Shown piece by piece: positions 4,745-17,884 of a stretch of 36,981 nucleotides of DNA. How positions within the stretch are numbered: position 1 is the stretch's first letter; every line of letters starts with the position of its first letter. This DNA is from a virus. Lineage: Duplodnaviria; Heunggongvirae; Uroviricota; Caudoviricetes. The stretch lies in IMG/VR virus record IMGVR_UViG_2703718854_000003. The stretch is one strand, 5' to 3'. The translations under genes were made by a program, and so were the position numbers. Under the pieces are notes generated by a model. It saw nothing but the letters and a program-made list of their open reading frames with translations. It was not told the origin of the DNA and ran no database searches.

Positions 4745-4971
4745 TGGCTGATGCAATGGATCTCGTACAGCAGCGCGTTGAAGAAGAACGCCAGCGCCAT
4801 ATCCGTGCTGCCCGTGCCAAAACACCGGGCGTGTCTCGCGTGCTTTGCATTGAGTGTGAAGCGCCAATTCCGCCAGCACGCCGCCGTGCCATTCCGGGTG
4901 TGCAGCTTTGCATTACCTGCCAGGAAATTGCAGAGCTGAAAGGCAAACATTACAACGGAGGTGCTGTATGA
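4744..4971 (+). CDS. TraR/DksA-family C4 zinc-finger protein
   Basis: CxxC...CxxC motif (CIECEAPIPPARRRAIPGVQLCITCQ) typical of phage TraR-like proteins; start overlaps the previous stop. Confidence 0.7.
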   Translation: MADAMDLVQQRVEEERQRHIRAARAKTPGVSRVLCIECEAPIPPARRRAIPGVQLCITCQEIAELKGKHYNGGAV

Positions 4972-5825
4972 GCACCATCCTGAAATGGGCGGGAAATAAA
5001 ACCGCCATTATGTCCGAACTGAAAAAACACCTTCCTGCTGGCCCGCGACTGGTTGAACCTTTCGCGGGTTCCTGTGCTGTGATGATGGAGACGGATTACC
5101 CCAGCTATCTTGTTGCGGATATTAATCCTGATTTAATCAACCTCTATAAAAAGGTTGCTGCTGATTGCGAGGCGTTTATATCTCGTGCCAGAGCTTTATT
5201 TGAGGAAGCAAACAGGGAGTTGGCTTATTACAACATAAGACAGGAGTTTAATTACTCCACTGAAATTACTGATTTCATGAAAGCGGTATATTTCCTGTAT
5301 CTCAATCGTCATGGTTACCGTGGGTTATGTCGTTATAACAAGAGCGGGCATTTCAACATTCCATACGGTAATTATAAAAATCCGTATTTCCCTGAAAAAG
5401 AAATTCGCGCATTTGCAGAGAAAGCCCAGCAAGCAACGTTTATCTGCGCCAGCTTTGATGAAACGCTGGCGATGCTGCAGGTGGGGGATGTGGTGTATTG
5501 CGATCCGCCTTATGACGGTACGTTTTCCGGCTATCACACTAACGGCTTCACTGAAGATGACCAGTATCACCTGGCATCTGTTCTTGAATATCGATCATCA
5601 GAAGGTCATCCAGTCATTGTTTCTAACAGTGACACATCCCTGATCCGTTCGCTGTATCGAAATTTCACTCACCACTACATCAAGGCAAAACGCAGCATCG
5701 GCGTGTCGGCTGGCGAGAGTAAATCTGCAACAGAAATCATCGCTGTTTCTGGGGCGCGCTGCTGGGTGGGATTTGATCCTTCGCGTGGCGTGGATAGTTC
5801 TGCCGTGTACGGAGTGCGTGCATGA
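4968..5825 (+). CDS. dam: DNA adenine methyltransferase (Dam-like, GATC N6-adenine MTase family)
   Basis: N-terminal SAM-binding motif LKWAGNK...PFAGSCAV and catalytic DPPY motif (VVYCDPPY). Start chosen at ATG 4968 overlapping the upstream stop (ATGA), not the ORF-track start 4908. Confidence 0.85.
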
Positions 5826-8236
5826 GCCATGCTGATATGAACAACTGCAGCGGCTTTAACGAGGCCGCCGCAGCATTCTCATGGAACAGCCCGAAAAAGG
5901 CTATTAACCCTTATCTGGACCTGGCGGAAGTTGCGCCGGTTTCTGCGCTTTCAAACCTGATCACTCTGTACGCTGCCGATAACGAGCAGGAACAACTGCG
6001 CCGCGAGGCACTGAGTGATCAGGTTTGGGAGCGTTATTTCTTTAATGAATCCCGTGATCCTGTCCAGCGCGAAATGGAGCAGGATAAGTTCATTAGCCGG
6101 GCAAAGTTGGCGCATGAGCAGCAGCGTTTTAACCCGGACATGGTCATTCTGGCAGACGTTAACGCCCAGCCTTCCCATATCAGCAGGCCGCTGATGCAAC
6201 GTATTGAATACTTCAGCAGCCTTGGCAGGCCAAAGGCTTATTCCCGCTATTTACGTGAGACGATTAAGCCATGTCTGGAACGGCTGGAGCATGTACGCGA
6301 CAGTCAGCTATCCACTTCTTTTCGCTTTATGGCAAGCCATGAAGGGCTGGACGGCCTGCTGATTCTGCCTGAAATGAGTCAGGATCAGGTGAAACGCCTG
6401 TCCACCCTTGTTGCTGCGCATATGAGCATGTGCCTTGATGCAGCTTGTGGCGATTTGTATGCCACCGATGACGTTAAGCCAGAAGAAATCCGCAAGACAT
6501 GGGAAAAGGTGGCAGCAGAAACCCTGCGACTGGATGTCATACCGCCTGCGTTTGAGCAACTCCGCCGGAAAAGAAACCGCCGTAAACCCGTGCCCTATGA
6601 ACTCATTCCGGGTTCGCTGGCGCGTATGTTGTGCGCCGATTGGTGGTACCGGAAATTATGGAAGATGCGTTGCGAATGGCGGGAAGAGCAGTTGCGTGCT
6701 GTTTGCCTGGTCAGCAAAAAAGCATCTCCCTATGTCAGCTATGAAGCCATGATGCATAAACGTGAGCAGCGCCGTAAGTCGCTGGAGTTTTTCCGTTCTC
6801 ATGAACTGGTGAACGAAGACGGCGACACGCTGGACATGGAGGATGTGGTAAACGCCAGCAGCAGCAACCCTGCGCATCGCCGCAATGAGATGATGGCCTG
6901 TGTTAAAGGTCTGGAGCTTATCGCGGAAATGCGCGGTGACTGCGCCGTTTTCTACACCATCACCTGTCCGTCACGTTTCCATTCCACGCTAAATAACGGC
7001 AGGCCCAACCCGACCTGGACAAATACGACGGTAAGACAAAGCAGTGATTATCTGGTCGGCATGTTTGCTGCATTTCGTAAGGCGATGCACAAAGCCGGAT
7101 TGCGCTGGTATGGCGTGCGGGTGGCTGAGCCGCATCATGACGGTACAGTTCACTGGCACCTGTTGTGTTTTATGCGCAAAAAAGATCGCCGCACCATTAC
7201 TGCTTTGTTGCGTAAGTTTGCCATTCGTGAAGACCGCGAGGAGCTGGGTAATAACACGGGACCACGCTTTAAGTCTGAGCTGATAAACCCGCGCAAAGGT
7301 ACGCCAACAAGCTACATCGCGAAATACATCAGTAAGAACATTGACGGGCGTGGTCTGGCTGGCGAGATCAGCAAGGAAACGGGTAAATCCCTGCGTGATA
7401 ACGCTGAATACGTTAATGCCTGGGCGTCTCTGCATCGTGTTCAGCAATTCCGCTTCTTTGGCATTCCGGGGCGTCAGGCTTACCGTGAACTGCGATTGCT
7501 GGCTGGTCAGGCGGCAAGGCAACAGGGGGACAAAAAAGCAGGTGCGCCGGTACTGGATAACCCGCGCCTTGATGCAATCCTGGCTGCTGCTGATGCTGGT
7601 TGTTTTGCCACCTACATCATGAAGCAGGGCGGCGTACTGGTTCCCCGCAAATATCACCTCATCAGAACTGCTTATGAAATCAACGAAGAACCGACCGCAT
7701 ATGGCGATCACGGTATTCGTATTTATGGCATCTGGTCACCCATTGCAGAGGGCAAGATCTGCACTCATGCGGTGAAGTGGAAAATGGTTCGTAAGGCCGT
7801 TGACGTTCAGGAGGCGGCAGCCGACCAGGGCGCTTGCGCCCCTTGGACTCGTGGCAATAACTGTCCCCTTGCTGAAAATTTGTACCAACAAGGGAAAGAC
7901 AAATCAGCTGATGGGGATACCAGAACGGATATCACCCGTATGGATGACAAGGAGTTGCACGATTACCTGCACAGTATGAACAAAAAAGAGCGCCGGGAAC
8001 TGGCTGCAAGGTTACGCCTGGTGAAACCGAAACGGCGTAGAGACTACAAACAGCGAATTACAGACCATCAACGACAGCAGCTCGTCTATGAACTGAAGTC
8101 CAGAGGATTTGATGGCAGCGAGAAAGAGGTCGATTTACTCCTTCGCGGCGGCAGCATTCCGTCAGGAGCAGGCCTGCGTATCTTCTATCGGAACCAGCGT
8201 TTGCAGGAAGATGATAAGTGGCGGAACCTGTATTAA
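5822..8236 (+). CDS. A: Rolling-circle replication initiator endonuclease (P2 gpA family)
   Basis: 804 aa; HUH-type motif [10 protein letters not shown] and active-site tyrosine motif [12 protein letters not shown]; position after the early operon as in P2/186. Confidence 0.85.
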
Positions 8237-9092: not shown

Positions 9093-9308
9093 ATGTCAAG
9101 CATCGCCGCATTTAGCCTGGGTAACCCAGTTGAACGTCTGGCAAGGGTTCTTAAAGAGAACCAGGACAAACTCAATCTTAGTAAAGATGGTTTTGTGTCC
9201 GTAGACTTGTCTAACAAAAGAGCAATGGATGCCATCAAGGCACAGATGGATAAGCTTGAAGGCATCAAAACGAGCACTGTAAAAGAGAAAACTAATAGAA
9301 CCAGATAA
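9093..9308 (+). CDS. Hypothetical small protein (71 aa)
   Basis: Strong SD (AAAGGGGGAG) 3-12 nt upstream of ATG; stop overlaps the start of the next gene (TAATG). Confidence 0.55.
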   Translation: MSSIAAFSLGNPVERLARVLKENQDKLNLSKDGFVSVDLSNKRAMDAIKAQMDKLEGIKTSTVKEKTNRTR

Positions 9309-10150
9309 TGGCAACATTACTTTTAGCAGTGATTTTGGTTAGTGGTTTTATTTATGTAAACCTATCACTTTCAACAAGATACCGATATAAGCGTTCCAAC
9401 GGCTGGGACGCTTATTTTTTTGTGGCTGCCTGGGGTATCGTTTTTTTTCTCCTTGGCGGTTTTTTCACCTTTATTTTGAACGTCAGCGGAGGGTTTCGTT
9501 GGCTGGCTAATGCCTTGAATCTAACACCTGACAGTTTTAATGGCATGTTGTCTTCATCGAAAGACAAACTTCAAAGAATAAATGAAATCAAACAGATAGC
9601 ATGGGTTATGATTTCAATTGTTCTCGCTGCGATTTCAGGTTTTGGAAATAAGTTACGCACATCACGTGGAGATCGTCGCTGGGATGCCTTAGCTAAAGCT
9701 GTGGGTAATAACGCTTTCGAATCATTACTCATGGAAGCGTCCGCAAGACAGTTTCCGATCATAGCAACTCTGTCGTCTCGCAAAATCTATGTTGGTCTTG
9801 TTACTTGTCCGGCGTTAGAAAACGGGCTTTCAGAACACCTTGAACTTCTCCCGATGTTAAGCGGATATCGGGATAAAGATGATCTAACGATTAGTATCAC
9901 GACTAACTATCACCAACATTATCTTGATAGTGGTGTGATAAGTGGAATGTCTCGGCTTAATATCGAAGATTTCCGTGTGCTCATACCAAAAGATGAGGTT
10001 GAAACAATTTCGTTTTTTGATACTGAGACATATAACAAATTTAAAGAAAATGAAGCCAGGGATAGAAAGAACTGTCGAAAGATTGGTAGTAAAAGTGCAT
10101 CTTCGCGCAGCAAGCGTGCAGCAGATGCTGAGTCAAATGATCGTGCATGA
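9308..10150 (+). CDS. Hypothetical membrane protein (three N-terminal TM helices plus C-terminal soluble domain)
   Basis: Hydrophobic segments LLLAVILVSGFIYV, FFVAAWGIVFFLLGGFFTFIL, IAWVMISIVLAAISGF; translationally coupled to the 71-aa ORF; followed by an intrinsic terminator. Confidence 0.6.
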   Translation: MATLLLAVILVSGFIYVNLSLSTRYRYKRSNGWDAYFFVAAWGIVFFLLGGFFTFILNVSGGFRWLANALNLTPDSFNGMLSSSKDKLQRINEIKQIAWVMISIVLAAISGFGNKLRTSRGDRRWDALAKAVGNNAFESLLMEASARQFPIIATLSSRKIYVGLVTCPALENGLSEHLELLPMLSGYRDKDDLTISITTNYHQHYLDSGVISGMSRLNIEDFRVLIPKDEVETISFFDTETYNKFKENEARDRKNCRKIGSKSASSRSKRAADAESNDRA

Positions 10151-10198
10151 CTATGCTGCATGAGATCGCATGATCGTTTGAGGATCGTTTTTGCTAAG

Positions 10199-10222
10199 GC
10201 CCGCCAGAACTGGCGGGCTTTT
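10199..10222 (+). terminator. Rho-independent terminator
   Basis: GC stem GCCCGCC-AGAACT-GGCGGGC followed by TTTT. Confidence 0.75.
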
Positions 10223-10267
10223 GCGTAGATCATGCACCTGCATGAAAACTACTACATAAAGCGGGCA

Positions 10268-10286
10268 GGCGTGGCGGGGATACGAG
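10268..10286. other. Candidate cos (cohesive-end) core of the prophage
   Basis: GGCGTGGCGGGGATACGAG resembles the P2/186 19-nt cohesive-end sequence as I remember it (GGCG-A/T-GGCGGGGAAAGCA-C/T). Lies in the region where P2 has cos, but is separated from Q by the retron-like cassette. Confidence 0.45.
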
Positions 10287-10319
10287 CGCGCGCTGAGCTG
10301 CATTCACTTGAATAATCCG

Positions 10320-10500
10320 TATGTTAGTGCTAGCCTAGCTGTGCCCTTAGCAGGAAAGTACATTCAATATGTTACTTTCTAGTGGTTGGTGTTTAGCCAA
10401 CTCGTATGGATTGCTTGGTATCTCGACACAAGTTAGCCTTGTGTCATTTATAGACACCAGGCTAACTTGTGTCTCGGGAACTCTTGTATGGGCATTAATT
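10320..10500 (+). ncRNA. Candidate retron msr-msd non-coding RNA (boundaries approximate)
   Basis: Structured non-coding stretch immediately upstream of the effector-RT pair. Small stem-loops (AAAGTACA-TTCAATA-TGTTACTTT at 10346-10369; GTTGG-TGTTTAG-CCAAC) are followed by a long hairpin at 10425-10473 (14-bp perfect stem GACACAAGTTAGCC/GGCTAACTTGTGTC enclosing inner stem GTGTC/GACAC), typical of an msd. The flanking a1/a2 inverted repeats could not be identified. Confidence 0.45.
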
Positions 10501-10503
10501 GTT

Positions 10504-11421
10504 ATGTGGTTTAAACATCCTAGATATTTACGAGCAAAAGAAAATTTTATTTCAAGTTTTTTTCCAAGTAACTTGAATTCTTTTAATTATATCCTGCCAA
10601 AAGTATTATTTATTTGTGGAGGAGATGAGACTTATTGTTCAAATAGAGGGATGCTGGAAAAATATATTGCTAAGCATCATAAAGAATTTGTTACTTTTCG
10701 AGCAGAATTAGCATGGGAAGTAATTAGCAATTTAGGAACTCATAGTAATGTGAATGCGCTATCACTTGAAGAATGGCTTGCGGATTTTTCTGATGTGGTA
10801 ATTATTCTCGTAGAGAGTTATGGCACTGTAGCTGAATTGGGCGCATTTTCATTAAGTCCTGTTTTACGTAAAAAACTTCTTCCTATATTAGATAAAAAGT
10901 TTGAAAGTCATAAGTCATTTATCAATACAGGGCCCGTAAAATGGGTTGATAGTGAATCCAAATTTGGCCCTACAATCTATACTGAATTTGAGACAATTTT
11001 AACGTGTATGCCTAAAATAAATGAAAGGCTAAATAGGAAAGTTCAATCAAACATAACTAATACAAATTCAATAGGTGATTACAAATATTCACCAAAAATT
11101 TTTTTATTTTTTGTGCTCGTTGTTATATCTTCTTTAGGTCCAATAACAATTCCTGAGATTATTAATATCACAGGTAGGTTGATAAATTATAAAATTAATA
11201 AAAATATTTCATTTGTTGTTTCTATTGGAGTTGCCCTTGGGATTTTTAAGGAAAGTCGATTTGAGGGCGTGACCCATTATTCATGTGTCGATTATATTAA
11301 ATTTTTTAATCATGAAAAGATGAAAGATTTAGTTGAAAGTATTCAACGAAGTAGAGCTAGATCATTATCCGATTTAATAATGATATCTAAATTCAAAGCA
11401 GAATTAGAAAGGATCATGTGA
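10504..11421 (+). CDS. Candidate retron effector: NDT-like (nucleoside deoxyribosyltransferase-like N-glycosidase) domain plus C-terminal putative DNA-binding domain
   Basis: AT-rich gene directly abutting the RT. Motifs KVLFICGGDE and DVVIILVESYGTVAELGAFS resemble NDT-like folds found in type II retron effectors. ORF-track start 10369 overlaps the hairpin, so start placed at in-frame ATG 10504 (10651 also possible). Domain assignment is from motif memory. Confidence 0.5.
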   Translation: MWFKHPRYLRAKENFISSFFPSNLNSFNYILPKVLFICGGDETYCSNRGMLEKYIAKHHKEFVTFRAELAWEVISNLGTHSNVNALSLEEWLADFSDVVIILVESYGTVAELGAFSLSPVLRKKLLPILDKKFESHKSFINTGPVKWVDSESKFGPTIYTEFETILTCMPKINERLNRKVQSNITNTNSIGDYKYSPKIFLFFVLVVISSLGPITIPEIINITGRLINYKINKNISFVVSIGVALGIFKESRFEGVTHYSCVDYIKFFNHEKMKDLVESIQRSRARSLSDLIMISKFKAELERIM

Positions 11422-11422
11422 T

Positions 11423-12352
11423 ATGTTAATTGAGTATCTAGCTAAAGTTTTACTGTTAGAAGCTGATTTTATATTAAAAGTTGCAAATGATGCTAACTCG
11501 CATTATGGTAAATTTTCTGTACCTAAAAAAGGCGGTGGGACAAGAATCGTCTATCAGCCCTCTAAAGAATTAAAAGTTTTGCAGAGATTACTTCATGATA
11601 ATGTTCTGTCGAAATTGCCGATTCATCCAAATGCTGTAGCATATCAGCAGGGTTCATCAGTGTTCAAACATGCAAGCATTCACAAAGCTAAACGTTTTAT
11701 GCTTAAGATGGACTTTGAAGGTTTTTTTGATTCAATTAAGAAAAGTGATGTTGAGAGATTTATAAACGACAACAAGCATTTCTTCAGTGATGATTGGTCA
11801 AAGGATGATACTGATTTGCTGGTGAAAATAGTATGCTTTAACGGGAGACTGACTATGGGTGCTGTTAGTTCCCCTGTGGTAAGCAATGCTATATGCTATG
11901 AATTAGATCATATATTGAATGAATTTTGTCTTTCAAAAGGTATAACATATACACGCTATGCTGATGATATGTACTTCTCAACAAACGAAGAAAATGTATT
12001 GAAGCAAATACCACCTTTTTTACGCTCGAATTTAAAAAATTTGAAATACCCATCAAAACTATGGATTAATAGAAAAAAGACACTGCATATGTCAAAGAAA
12101 AATAAAATGATGGTTACGGGTGTGACTTTGACAACAGATGGTGGAGTATCCTTAGGGAGAGATAAAAAAAGGATGGTTAAATCGCTTATTTTTAAATGGG
12201 AGGCTCTTGATGAGAAGAAAAGGCTATTTCTTCAAGGATATTTATCGTATTGCAAAAGTGTTGAGCCATTATTTATTAATAGGCTTTGTGCGAAATATTC
12301 ATCAGAGCTGATTGATGAAATCCAGAGATATCAACCTGTAGTATCAGAATAA
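11423..12352 (+). CDS. Retron-type reverse transcriptase
   Basis: RT motifs in order: PKKGGGTRIVYQPS (motif 1/2), LKMDFEGFFDSI (motif A), SSPVVSN (motif B'), YTRYADDMYF (motif C, YADD) and the retron-typical VTG triplet (KMMVTGVTL). About 309 aa, similar in layout to the Ec86 RT. AAAGGA SD; start 2 nt after the effector stop. Confidence 0.8.
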   Translation: MLIEYLAKVLLLEADFILKVANDANSHYGKFSVPKKGGGTRIVYQPSKELKVLQRLLHDNVLSKLPIHPNAVAYQQGSSVFKHASIHKAKRFMLKMDFEGFFDSIKKSDVERFINDNKHFFSDDWSKDDTDLLVKIVCFNGRLTMGAVSSPVVSNAICYELDHILNEFCLSKGITYTRYADDMYFSTNEENVLKQIPPFLRSNLKNLKYPSKLWINRKKTLHMSKKNKMMVTGVTLTTDGGVSLGRDKKRMVKSLIFKWEALDEKKRLFLQGYLSYCKSVEPLFINRLCAKYSSELIDEIQRYQPVVSE

Positions 12353-12358
12353 CGTGTG

Positions 12359-12389
12359 TGCGCATGAAAATTTCCATGCGCATTTTCTT
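12359..12389 (+). terminator. Intrinsic terminator after the retron-like operon (overlaps the 3' end of Q)
   Basis: Stem TGCGCATG/CATGCGCA with 8-nt loop, followed by TTTTCTT on the plus strand. Confidence 0.6.
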
Positions 12390-13413
12390 AAAAACAGTAG
12401 TCATTAAATGAAATAATTTCTTTTCCAGCCCAGTTATTCAGTGATTCAAAATTCTTTTGCAATGGCATTAACTCATTCCGCACAAACACTTTGCTTGCCT
12501 TCTCCACATCCCCAAATCCCCCAACACTATTAGGCATAATCCCCATCATCTGCGGCGGCACGCGGTGTGCCGCCATCATGTCATCGCGACTAACATTTTT
12601 GATATTCAAAAACTCATCCTTCGCCGCGACTTCTGACAATGGGATGATCTGAAGCCCGTCTTTTTTGCCGTTAGGCGAGTACATAAACAGGTTGCGGAAG
12701 TTGCCTGGCCCTTTGGCGCTTTTCATCGCGTTGCGGAGGTTGTTCACATCCTCCTGGTTCTGAGCGGCATCGGTCATGTACATTATGAATCCTGCATGGC
12801 TGCCATTAATATAATATTTGCGTCGGAACAGCGTGGCGGACTCGTTGAGCAGGGCTGACGGAATGGCAGAAAGATAACCGGGCAGGCCGTAGATCTCCTG
12901 GTTGATATCGGGTTCCATCAGATGAAAGATGCTGCCTTTCGTGAACTGATACGGCTGGGTTGTCATGCCGTATTGCACAAACCAGTAGGTATCCAGGTCT
13001 AACCCACGTCGGGTGTATTTTGCCAGAGCAGGCTCAAGGGCGATAACTTCACCGAACCGGTTCGTGCGTTTCTCCAGGTATGCGTTACCAAATACCAGAT
13101 AGTCCTGCACAAAACGTGAAAAAGCCTGCTGGCTGAGAAGCGGGTGAGGGATGTAGGTACTGGTCAGAATGTTGCATTTCACCGCAATTGGTGAACTGTG
13201 ATGCACGGCAGCGCGGAAGGTTCGCGCCAGTCCGTCAAAACTCACTGGCGGCTCATACCAGCGATCTGTCTGTACGCATTCCACATAGTCCAGCAGTTCG
13301 CGGCGGTCCAGAACAGGAACGGGATCGCCAAAGCTGAATGCTTCGGCTGAAGTCTGGCTTTTATGCTGAATCTGGTTCGTCGACACAGCGCGGTTCTTCT
13401 TACTCTTTCCCAT
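12388..13413 (-). CDS. Q: Portal protein (P2 gpQ-like)
   Basis: About 341 aa, N-terminus MGKSKKNR...; lies in the Q-P pair divergent from O-N-M-L as in P2; start chosen at ATG 13413. Confidence 0.8.
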   Translation of the reverse strand: MGKSKKNRAVSTNQIQHKSQTSAEAFSFGDPVPVLDRRELLDYVECVQTDRWYEPPVSFDGLARTFRAAVHHSSPIAVKCNILTSTYIPHPLLSQQAFSRFVQDYLVFGNAYLEKRTNRFGEVIALEPALAKYTRRGLDLDTYWFVQYGMTTQPYQFTKGSIFHLMEPDINQEIYGLPGYLSAIPSALLNESATLFRRKYYINGSHAGFIMYMTDAAQNQEDVNNLRNAMKSAKGPGNFRNLFMYSPNGKKDGLQIIPLSEVAAKDEFLNIKNVSRDDMMAAHRVPPQMMGIMPNSVGGFGDVEKASKVFVRNELMPLQKNFESLNNWAGKEIISFNDYCF

Positions 13414-15179
13414 CAAAAAATCTCCACAATATTGCTGGTATTGGCGGACTCGCCCTGCAGCGGTTCGTTAAACAGTGCGTGCATTGTTGCCCACGCCAGA
13501 TCGGCATGGCTGGCTTCTTCGCTGCGGCTGGCTTCATAGGTCGGGCGGTTGCCGCTGGCGGTGGTGGCGCGACGGATTGCCATAAATGACTGCGCTATGT
13601 CGGTGTGTCCGGCGTCAAACTCCAGACGGCGGTGACTGATAATGTCGTAGGCCTTGAGTACCAGGGCATTTTTAACGTTGGGGTTGTAGACAAACTCCCG
13701 GACGGCAGGAAAAAACGCTTTCACGTTCTCGTAAACCCCGTGACCGACGCCGGTTGAGTCGATACCGATGTATGTCACGTTGTACTGTTCAGTCAGTTTT
13801 TTGATGGCGTCAGCCTGGGCGCGGAAGTCCATCCCGCGCCACTGGTGACGCTCAAGAATGCGGAACTTACCGCCCGGCACGGCTGGCGGTGCCACCACTA
13901 CGCATCCGGCGCTGTCGCCGTTCTGCGTACCTTTTGCCGGGTCATAACCGATCCACACTTCGCGCCAGCCAAACGGGCGCAGCGCCAGTGCATGAAAGTC
14001 GGTCCAGACTTCCCAGCTGTCCACCATGCACGCCTGTAGTTCGCTGAGCGGGAACACGGACGCGAGATCGTCCACAAACTCGCACATCAGCAGGTTCTGG
14101 TATTCGTCCGGGCTGTATTCCATGCGCAACTGGTCAAGGTCGAACAGGTTACAGCCGCCGCGCACCGCATCTTCGACGGTGACTATCTGGCGGTATTGCC
14201 CGTCAGCGCACAGCAGGCCGGGGGCCAGATTGTTGTGGGACAGGTCGATGTCCACCTTGTCGGCTTTGTTGCGTCCGCGGTTGAACAGCGCACCGGACCA
14301 GAACGGATAAGCACTGTGGGTCAGGCTGGATGGTGTGGAAAAATAGGTCTGCCGCCATTTCTTGTGAATAGCCATACCGGAAGCCACTTTGCGTAGCTCC
14401 TGAAATTTCGGTATCCAGAAATATTCATCCAGATACAGGTTGCCGTGATAACTCTGGGCCGTGCGGGCATTGGTGCCGAGGAAGTAAAGCGTGGCCCCGT
14501 TAGGAAGCACCATCGGATCGCCTTTCAGTTCCACATCCACTTCTTTGGCGAAGTCGATGATGTACTGCTTAAAGACGTGGGCCTGTGCCTTACTGGCGGA
14601 AAGGAAAATCTGGTTACGTCCGGTAAGCAGGGCGTCAATCAGGGCTTCACGGGCAAAGTAAAAGGTCGCGCCGATCTGGCGTGACTTCAGCAGGTTGCGG
14701 ATGCGGTTGGTTTTTCCGGCTTCCCACCAGTGGCGCTGGTAGTTGAACATGGAGGAATGGAAGATTTTTTCCAGCTTCTCAATCTGTTCATCGGTGAAGA
14801 CATTCTTTTCCGGCTGACGGCGCGGGCCTTTGTTGCGGTTGGCGACGTTAGGGTTTAAGTCAGCTTCGTTGCCGCCATTGTTAAACTTGCCGATCCGCGC
14901 GTGGCGCTCAGACTGGCGCGCCAGCAGGTCAATCTCTTTGAAATCTTTCCCTTCTTTGTGCTCCTTCATAATGAGCTGGCAGTAGCGTGCGGCGGTGGTG
15001 AGCTGCATCTGATCCAGCGGCCCATAGTCACCCCACTTGTCGCGTTTTTTCCAGCTGTGAACGGTTGCAACTTTCTCGCCCAGCATTTCAGCAATGCGGG
15101 CGACGCGGTATCCCTGAAAGTACAGCAGCATGGCCTGCCGACGGGGATCGAGATCTGCGGGTGTCAGTGTGGTGTTCAT
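13413..15179 (-). CDS. P: Terminase large (ATPase) subunit (P2 gpP-like)
   Basis: 588 aa; synteny with Q and divergent from the capsid operon. Confidence 0.8.
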   Translation of the reverse strand: MNTTLTPADLDPRRQAMLLYFQGYRVARIAEMLGEKVATVHSWKKRDKWGDYGPLDQMQLTTAARYCQLIMKEHKEGKDFKEIDLLARQSERHARIGKFNNGGNEADLNPNVANRNKGPRRQPEKNVFTDEQIEKLEKIFHSSMFNYQRHWWEAGKTNRIRNLLKSRQIGATFYFAREALIDALLTGRNQIFLSASKAQAHVFKQYIIDFAKEVDVELKGDPMVLPNGATLYFLGTNARTAQSYHGNLYLDEYFWIPKFQELRKVASGMAIHKKWRQTYFSTPSSLTHSAYPFWSGALFNRGRNKADKVDIDLSHNNLAPGLLCADGQYRQIVTVEDAVRGGCNLFDLDQLRMEYSPDEYQNLLMCEFVDDLASVFPLSELQACMVDSWEVWTDFHALALRPFGWREVWIGYDPAKGTQNGDSAGCVVVAPPAVPGGKFRILERHQWRGMDFRAQADAIKKLTEQYNVTYIGIDSTGVGHGVYENVKAFFPAVREFVYNPNVKNALVLKAYDIISHRRLEFDAGHTDIAQSFMAIRRATTASGNRPTYEASRSEEASHADLAWATMHALFNEPLQGESANTSNIVEIF

Positions 15180-17233: not shown

Positions 17234-17884
17234 ATGAGCCTGAGTCCCGCACGGCAGCATCGCCTGCGCGTTCAGGCTGAACAGGCCGCCCGCGAGGGCG
17301 GCAGCGTTCGCCACGCGTCGGGCTATGACCTGATGCTGCTGCAACTGGCGGAAGACCGCCGCCGTCTCAAGGGCGTTCAGTCCACGGTCAAAAAAGCGGA
17401 AATCAAGGTGGAGCTGCTGCCGAAGTACGCCGCCTGGGCGGAGGGTGTCCTGGCTGCCGGAGGCGCTCAACAGGATGACGTGCTGATGTACGTGATGCTG
17501 TGGCGCATTGATGCCGGAGATTATGCCGGGGCGCTGGAGATCGGGCGTCACGCCCTGCGTCATGGCTGGGTGATGCCGTTAGGTAACCGCAACGTGCAGA
17601 CCGTGCTGGCAGAGGAAATGGCAGATGCAGCCCAGAGCGCAATGCTTGCCGCCACCGGCTTTGATGCCGATCTGTTGCTGCAGACCCTGGAGCTGACAGA
17701 CGGTATGGATATGCCGGACCAGTCACGGGCGCGTCTGCATAAAGCGATTGGCGCTGTCCTGAGTGAAAGAAATCCGGCGTCTGCCCTTAATCATCTCAAC
17801 CATGCGTTACAGCTCGATCCCCGCTGTGGCGTGAAAAAAGACAAACAGCAGCTGGAGCGCAGACTGCGCAATGACAGCCGCTGA
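17234..17884 (+). CDS. M: Terminase small/endonuclease subunit (P2 gpM-like)
   Basis: 216 aa; synteny. Confidence 0.75.
   Translation: MSLSPARQHRLRVQAEQAAREGGSVRHASGYDLMLLQLAEDRRRLKGVQSTVKKAEIKVELLPKYAAWAEGVLAAGGAQQDDVLMYVMLWRIDAGDYAGALEIGRHALRHGWVMPLGNRNVQTVLAEEMADAAQSAMLAATGFDADLLLQTLELTDGMDMPDQSRARLHKAIGAVLSERNPASALNHLNHALQLDPRCGVKKDKQQLERRLRNDSR

Follow-up and report, generated by a model that had tools for sequence, protein, structure and literature searches.

The 19 nucleotides at positions 10268-10286 of the DNA analysed here very probably form the site, cos, at which the DNA of a complete 186-like E. coli prophage (Peduoviridae) is cleaved, and the retron beside them appears, from comparison of sequences, to be swappable cargo in the slot between cos and the portal gene Q. 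The window, meaning the whole stretch of 36,981 nucleotides (IMG/VR record IMGVR_UViG_2703718854_000003), corresponds to a complete E. coli prophage of the 186 type and is 100% identical to MS14386 (NZ_LR130552.1) over 10150-12420. Spanning integrase to gpD, the prophage carries an integrase gene (1-1053), a 186-type CI repressor, a Dam methylase, gpA (5822-8236), a DinI/Tum-like gene and two small accessory genes ahead of cos, followed by Q and P on the minus strand and then by scaffold O, capsid N, small terminase M and head-completion L (+ strand) and the tail genes up to gpD. P2 and 186 share this map order, and cos of P2, 186 and P4 likewise lies between right-end accessory genes and Q (reference records NC_001895 for P2, NC_001317 for 186 and NC_001609 for P4). 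The genes for head and packaging functions (Q, P, O, N, M and L) are all intact, including those of the portal protein (Q, 12388-13416, minus strand; Pfam Phage_portal), the large terminase gpP (13413-15179, minus strand; Terminase_5, Terminase_6N and Terminase_6C) and the small terminase gpM (17234-17884, plus strand; Pfam Phage_term_smal, 1.5e-40), the presumed cos-recognition subunit.

Identification of the cohesive-end sequence

The sequence GGCGTGGCGGGGATACGAG was found exactly at 10268-10286 on the plus strand. The preliminary description of this DNA had remarked on its close resemblance to the cohesive ends of P2 and 186, and the resemblance itself held, with agreement at 15 of 19 positions with the annotated cohesive end of 186 (GGCGTGGCGGGGAAAGCAT) and at 14 of 19 with that of P2 (GGCGAGGCGGGGAAAGCAC). 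Its significance when the 19-mer is taken alone did not hold, the best scores in 200 shuffled 37-kb windows having a mean of 13.7 and a maximum of 16. A search of the window with the P2 and 186 19-mers, allowing three mismatches, returned no match. Because the 19-mer alone was not significant, the tests were extended to its flanks, and it is these flanks, together with identical annotated cos sites, that constitute the proof. Over -40 to +26, the window agreed, in one and the same register, with 186 at 52 of 66 positions and with P2 at 45 of 66, where shuffled windows reached 37 at most, so that the alignment to the P2 and 186 cos regions proposed in the preliminary description came out clearly positive once the flanks were included. 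A consensus of the P2 and 186 flanks gave a single match in the window, at 10261-10293, and none in 100 shuffles.

The 19-mer and the seven bases that follow it (CGCGCGC) are identical in SEN8, Cartapus, RE-2010, vB_EcoM-813R9, two Klebsiella phages and E. coli BL21. The record of Salmonella phage SEN8 begins at this 26-mer, annotated there as "putative cos site", and Escherichia phage Cartapus also has it annotated as cos. SEN8 was plaque-purified and CsCl-banded, although its cos comes from annotation, not from mapping of the ends (PMC5427200). The last base of both the SEN8 and the EtG record corresponds to 10267, and that of the fiAA91-ss cosR corresponds to 10286. The records of PSP3 and Fels-2 were checked for an experimentally defined end of the ATACGAG type and provided none, the cos of PSP3 being annotated as identical to that of 186 and the Fels-2 record starting at attP. 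The proposal that the 19-mer is cos is thus upheld by what it has in common with P2 and 186 in sequence, register and place on the map, and by the identical annotated sites of SEN8 and Cartapus. A chance GC-rich resemblance, to which the scores of 15 and 14 would conform in lying within the shuffled range, retains practically no probability and is already refuted by the flank consensus search, by the shuffle test with the flanks in register far beyond the null, by identical annotated cos sites that coincide with record ends, and by the canonical genomic position.

The cohesive ends of P2, 186 and P4 and that of the window are alike in being 19-nt, GC-rich and starting GGCG[A/T]GGCGGGGA, in the 55-bp core and the GCAT box positions described below. 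They differ in the final six overhang bases, with ATACGAG in the window and AAAGCA[CT] in the three reference phages. Predicted nicks lie at 10267/10268 on the top strand and 10286/10287 on the bottom strand, which would leave 5' overhangs; these positions were taken from the annotation of 186 and EtG, "top strand cut at 5' end and bottom strand cut at 3' end".

The conserved cos island

The 19-mer lies in a conserved island of 151 bp (10143-10293), the packaging signal, with variable cargo on both sides. Alignment by blastn to eight relatives placed the start of island homology at 10142-10143 and its end at 10293-10298. Compared with five aligned relatives, the island of the window has three private substitutions (alignment columns 58-59 and 71), and islands 100% identical to it occur in other E. 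coli genomes. At a coverage of at least 80%, the island was present in 1250 of 5426 complete E. coli genomes.

Five GCATGA boxes, at 10145, 10158, 10168 and 10240 on the plus strand and at 10230 on the minus strand (-123, -110, -100, -28 and -38 from the cut, respectively), are candidate terminase-binding repeats. They amount to five copies in 101 bp (10145-10245) against 47 in the whole 37-kb window (Poisson P about 3e-7). The GCAT motifs at -123, -110, -100 and -28 are conserved in position in P2, P4, 186, BL21, SEN8 and EtG, and the box positions are kept in 26 to 34 of 34 genome loci, including Chitinimonas loci only 35-50% identical overall. We infer from this pattern that the GCAT boxes are recognition elements of the terminase, through gpM. 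Their phasing is a small refinement that may already be published, possibly in Ziermann & Calendar 1990. Between P2 and P4, the boxes are conserved even outside the 55-bp core common to the two.

That core (-29 to +26) is the one identity block that P2 and its satellite P4 have in common, made up of 29 + 19 + 7 = 55 bp. It is described, with reference to Ziermann & Calendar 1990, in passages of PMC5694545 and PMC2231350; in the latter, P2 and P4 are cut by the same terminase, that of P2, which packages P4. Its counterpart in the window is at 10239-10293 and matches P2 at 41, 186 at 43 and P4 at 42 of the 55 positions, in register. On the portal side of the cut, only the last seven of these bases (CGCGCGC, 10287-10293, plus strand) are conserved. 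They are unchanged in all aligned relatives, with complete divergence thereafter; P2 and 186 have TGCGCGC and P4 has CGCGCGC. All other recognisable conservation is on the right-end side of the cut.

Between the GCAT boxes, inside the island, a GC-rich hairpin followed by TTTT (10193-10224, plus strand) forms a terminator-like end of the rightward operon of the DinI-like and left-cargo genes. It is an inverted repeat with 15-nt arms that are 87% complementary, and its CGCCAG..CTGGCG stem is kept in 186, EtG, SEN8 and BL21. A consensus terminator scan did not call this hairpin, its T-run being too short.

Beyond the named phages, the exact 26-mer was found at 38 loci of a one-genome-per-species collection, in many genera of Enterobacterales and in Chitinimonas. 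Chitinimonas sp. BJB300 and C. taiwanensis carry it on five and four contigs, respectively (nine loci, including L017-L020, L023, L037, L040 and L048). The Chitinimonas loci keep the same GCAT box spacing, and a portal homologue was within range only at L020 (68% identity). These sequences suggest that each Chitinimonas genome holds multiple P2-like elements or satellites sharing a cos with phages of Enterobacterales. In Klebsiella phage 4 LV-2017 (L001) the cos 19-mer is GGCGTGGCGGGCATACGAG, with G changed to C at position 12 (equivalent to window position 10279) within an otherwise invariant G-run. The change would alter both cohesive ends equally and may be tolerated for that reason.

The cargo slot and its retron

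Every relative diverges from the window at 10294, with DNA homology returning within Q, about 67 bp from its 3' end. Comparison with BL21, 813R9, Cartapus, RE-2010, ST15-OXA48phi14.1 and SEN8 placed the left junction at 10293-10298 and the right junction at 12454-12464, and thereby delimited a swappable module from 10294 to about 12454 (plus strand) that is here a type II-A retron. As described before, a retron-like cassette separates the 19-mer from the portal gene, with 2101 bp to the Q stop codon at 12388, an interval of 2.1 kb that in P2 and 186 measures 167 and 176 bp, respectively. The claim that the cassette is inserted exactly between cos and the 3' end of Q was right about the interval and wrong about the exact right limit, as the module extends into Q. 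Because homology returns only within the gene, the last 22 or so portal codons and a hairpin at 12358-12383 travel with the cargo, and the right-hand crossover of module exchange seems, from these junctions, to be inside the portal gene. The hairpin, situated between the stop codons of the reverse transcriptase (RT) and portal genes, is terminator-like with 9 pairs and is a candidate two-way terminator; BL21, 813R9 and ST15-OXA48phi14.1 differ in sequence at this position. Portal C-terminal peptides vary among relatives, the window's ending in NFESLNNWAGKEIISFNDYCF and that of BL21 in RLQELNNWLDEEVLNFSTYEL before the stop codon.

The cargo at this junction is an AIPR gene in RE-2010, a Ymh-domain gene in vB_EcoM-813R9, a SEFIR gene in ST15-OXA48phi14.1, a DUF4145 gene in Cartapus, a hypothetical gene with an HNH gene in SEN8 (2 kb of unrelated DNA) and retron Ec86 in BL21, and in four species-level loci the interval between cos and Q is only 179-190 bp. 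Across the species-level loci with a portal gene within the DNA fetched, the distance from cos to the portal gene ranged from 179 to 2682 bp, with divergence right after CGCGCGC. A retron RT was absent from all 38 species-level loci that have the exact 26-mer. The presence of unrelated genes at the same junction identifies a general cargo slot, not one specific to retrons, and as conservation towards the portal gene stops seven bases after the cohesive end, the DNA from 10294 onward is free to vary. There was no sign that the retron is functionally linked to packaging, and the varied cargo argues that the slot is simply permissive.

A less favourable reading of the same interval is that cos is a relic no longer supporting packaging, the retron having replaced some 180 bp that P2 and 186 kept and the prophage being effectively locked in. 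The 167-176 bp that these phages have of their own between cos and Q are indeed absent from the window, some copies of the same retron lie in degraded prophages without terminase or with a truncated portal gene (L055, L056 and L059), and the Ec86 prophage of BL21 is also defective. We consider a relic improbable, however, because the 55-bp core of P2 and P4 ends at the same +26, beyond which P4 is unrelated and yet packaged by the P2 terminase; because plaque-forming SEN8 has the identical 26 bases followed by its unrelated cargo; and because the packaging genes of the window are all intact.

It could also be argued that placement of the retron beside a cohesive end was functionally selected, either as the first DNA in, with early expression, or through an interaction of the structured element with the packaging site. 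Retrons recur at the site (Ec86, Ec67 and that of the window), and since the recognition elements are all across the cut, the right end would be packaged first and the retron end last and possibly be ejected first, should the analogy with lambda cosB extend to P2. Such selection is nevertheless very improbable given that relatives have unrelated non-retron genes, or nothing, at the same junction, that a retron RT is missing from all 38 species-level loci, and that, of about 1250 E. coli genomes with the cos island, just 8 carry the retron of the window. Nor is the element next to cos a fixed one, since the retron of the window begins with its ncRNA and Ec86 with its effector gene.

The retron, which we regard as permissively accommodated cargo, has its ncRNA region at approximately 10340-10500 (plus strand), with an msd-like hairpin at 10425-10473 whose 21-nt arms are 95% complementary and which would be 139-187 bp from the predicted left end. 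The region 10294-10510 folds at -76.4 kcal/mol (z = -5.1). A search for the a1/a2 repeats of a retron by inverted-repeat search, folding and eye found no convincing pair. An 8-nt complement (10192-10199/10345-10352) and a 7-nt complement between ATACGAG of cos and 10401-10407, both noticed by eye, were considered as a1/a2-type pairings and rejected as within chance expectation. An Rfam scan of 10150-10650 found no retron family and only a spurious match of a miRNA family on the msd hairpin (E = 0.16), and a promoter scan gave nothing at consensus level ahead of the ncRNA, where a weak TTGAAT-17-TAGCCT (10308-10336) was discerned by eye only. The effector gene (10504-11421, plus strand) encodes an NDT-like protein of the St85/STM3845 family (NCBIfam NF038232, 178.1 bits with a cutoff of 100; PADLOC NDT_II-A, 1.2e-53), and Pfam STM3845 is recorded on a protein identical to it. 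The RT gene (11423-12352, plus strand) is of the St85 family, type II-A (NF038233, 326.2 bits with a cutoff of 235; PADLOC RT_II-A, 4.4e-105; Pfam RVT_1). By family membership, this type II-A retron would be an anti-phage system protecting the lysogen.

The exact RT protein was found in 586 blocks of the assembly collection and was located between the DinI-like/left-cargo genes and the portal gene in 8 of 8 places among the matches listed. A scan of viral contigs with the RT gave two loci, both near-identical and hence uninformative. Several copies are in decayed prophages: the effector is cut to 173 aa in L057 (E. coli A37, CP029327.1), L055 and L056 are without terminase and head genes, and the portal protein of L059 is shortened to 264 aa. 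As the RT stays identical in these remnants, the retron outlasts the phage that carried it, just as Ec86 has done in BL21. In E. coli Combat13F7, the stretch from cos through the retron to the portal gene occurs at 98.5% identity on a separate 45-kb replicon (NZ_CP019246.1, a record of 45,156 bp) and also on the chromosome. No RT gene is annotated beneath the match on the replicon, which may be either a phage-plasmid of the P2-like kind or a copy that was excised and whose RT is damaged.

On the other side of cos, the left cargo slot (9093-10150, plus strand; the tin/old position in P2) holds two genes of unknown function encoding 71 and 280 aa. Neither protein had a match in Pfam, NCBIfam or PADLOC, their only assignments being phrog_9843 and phrog_3630, both of unknown function, and the 280-aa protein was rejected as a homologue of 186 Orf97 for want of any similarity. 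The pair is a candidate for an uncharacterised defence or exclusion system. In the sister prophages L055 and L056, a 525-aa HEPN_LA2681 gene replaces it while cos and the retron are still 99.7% identical, so the two sides of cos are exchanged independently.

Packaging and comparison with known systems

By homology to P2, 186 and P4, packaging would begin, after excision and replication, with recognition of 10143-10293 on circular phage DNA by the terminase (gpM and gpP), probably through the phased GCAT boxes, all of them on the right-end side. Terminase nicks staggered by 19 nt would then produce the 5' overhangs, the DNA would be fed through the portal gpQ, and the retron would come to lie at the very left end of the virion DNA. 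The slot begins exactly where the core recognised by the terminase would end, and only on the side without recognition elements; that this coincidence reflects a mechanism and not mere tolerance seems to us unlikely. In one version, left ends cut by the terminase could serve as recombination substrates, making cos an engine for the exchange of defence modules, and each module could bring its own portal C-terminus and terminator as the right-hand crossover point. In another, the cargo end could be packaged last and ejected first, with a head start on entry. The recombination idea is raised as a speculation in a passage of Rousset et al. 2022 (PMC9122126). The two slots around the 151-bp island, the fixed left junction at +26 and the right junction inside Q would make it testable.

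The significance of the assignment is mainly one of annotation, in that it predicts where the prophage DNA is cut for packaging and thus where its genome ends in the virion. The retron, as accessory cargo of a probably viable temperate phage, becomes horizontally mobile between Escherichia and Klebsiella, and the module boundaries (10294 to about 12454) are usable for cargo swaps in P2-like vectors. No new question is opened; that portal C-terminal codons travel with the cargo is a small refinement which may already be published.

A close counterpart in layout is found in Klebsiella phage 4 LV-2017 (NC_047818, Elveevirus) and in Kp48xx records, which have the same succession of cos, retron and portal gene and an RT 97.4% identical to that of the window. 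RefSeq annotates the effector of 4 LV-2017 as "retron St85 family effector protein"; its host genus differs, as does one base of its cos. Retron-Sen2 (St85) of Salmonella Typhimurium, also of type II-A, resembles the retron of the window at the family level in RT and effector, and has the gene order ncRNA-effector-RT, as here. Retrons of the Sen2 family are reportedly triggered when their msDNA undergoes Dam-type methylation. Sen2 is described as lying in an old prophage remnant near SGI1 (PMC6868368), and not beside an intact cos. The prophage of the window itself encodes a Dam-type N6-adenine methyltransferase (4908-5825), and the Ec67 prophage is likewise reported to encode a Dam-type methyltransferase (PMC7826664).

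In BL21, which is identical to the window in the cos 19-mer and CGCGCGC and diverges immediately after, Ec86 (Eco1) follows the order DinI-like gene, cos, effector, ncRNA, RT and portal gene, whereas the retron of the window has ncRNA, effector and RT. The Ec86 proteins belong to the same NCBIfam St85 family as those of the window, but the RT is only 31% identical and the effector can be aligned only over about 116 residues (41%). The Ec86 prophage of BL21 is defective, with gpA and CII pseudogenes, whereas the prophage of the window looks complete. A search with the Ec86 ncRNA sequence found 48 E. coli genomes at an identity of at least 99% (100% among the matches listed, which include BL21), and this validated the query. 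Another RT of P2-like coliphages is reportedly not a retron, and is said to lie where P2 has tin and old, across cos from the slot between cos and Q. It would likewise be accessory cargo near cos, and PMC9122126 cites Odegrip et al. 2006 for a functional reverse transcriptase in the variable locus of such phages.

The arrangement of cos and retron that the preliminary description picked out is therefore correct but already known, with retrons on record at the site since 1996 and the hotspot surveyed in 2022. Retrons Ec67 and Ec86 were placed at this position in 186-related prophages by Dodd & Egan 1996 (Virology 219:115), to judge by the title as cited in PMC6868368, PMC7826664 and PMC5694545, and a passage of PMC5694545 notes the interval between cosL and Q as a hotspot in phages of the phiRSY1/phiCTX type. 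The survey of Rousset et al. 2022 describes, in the part of PMC9122126 consulted, a cos-proximal gpA-gpQ hotspot of E. coli P2-like phages with diverse defence cargo that includes retrons, and the very effector of the window, recognised by its start (MWFKHPRYLRAKENF), is listed as "Type II retron" in the supplementary P2 hotspot table of that paper. Where that part of the survey treats gpA-gpQ as one hotspot, the window has two independently swapped slots, parted by the 151-bp cos island.
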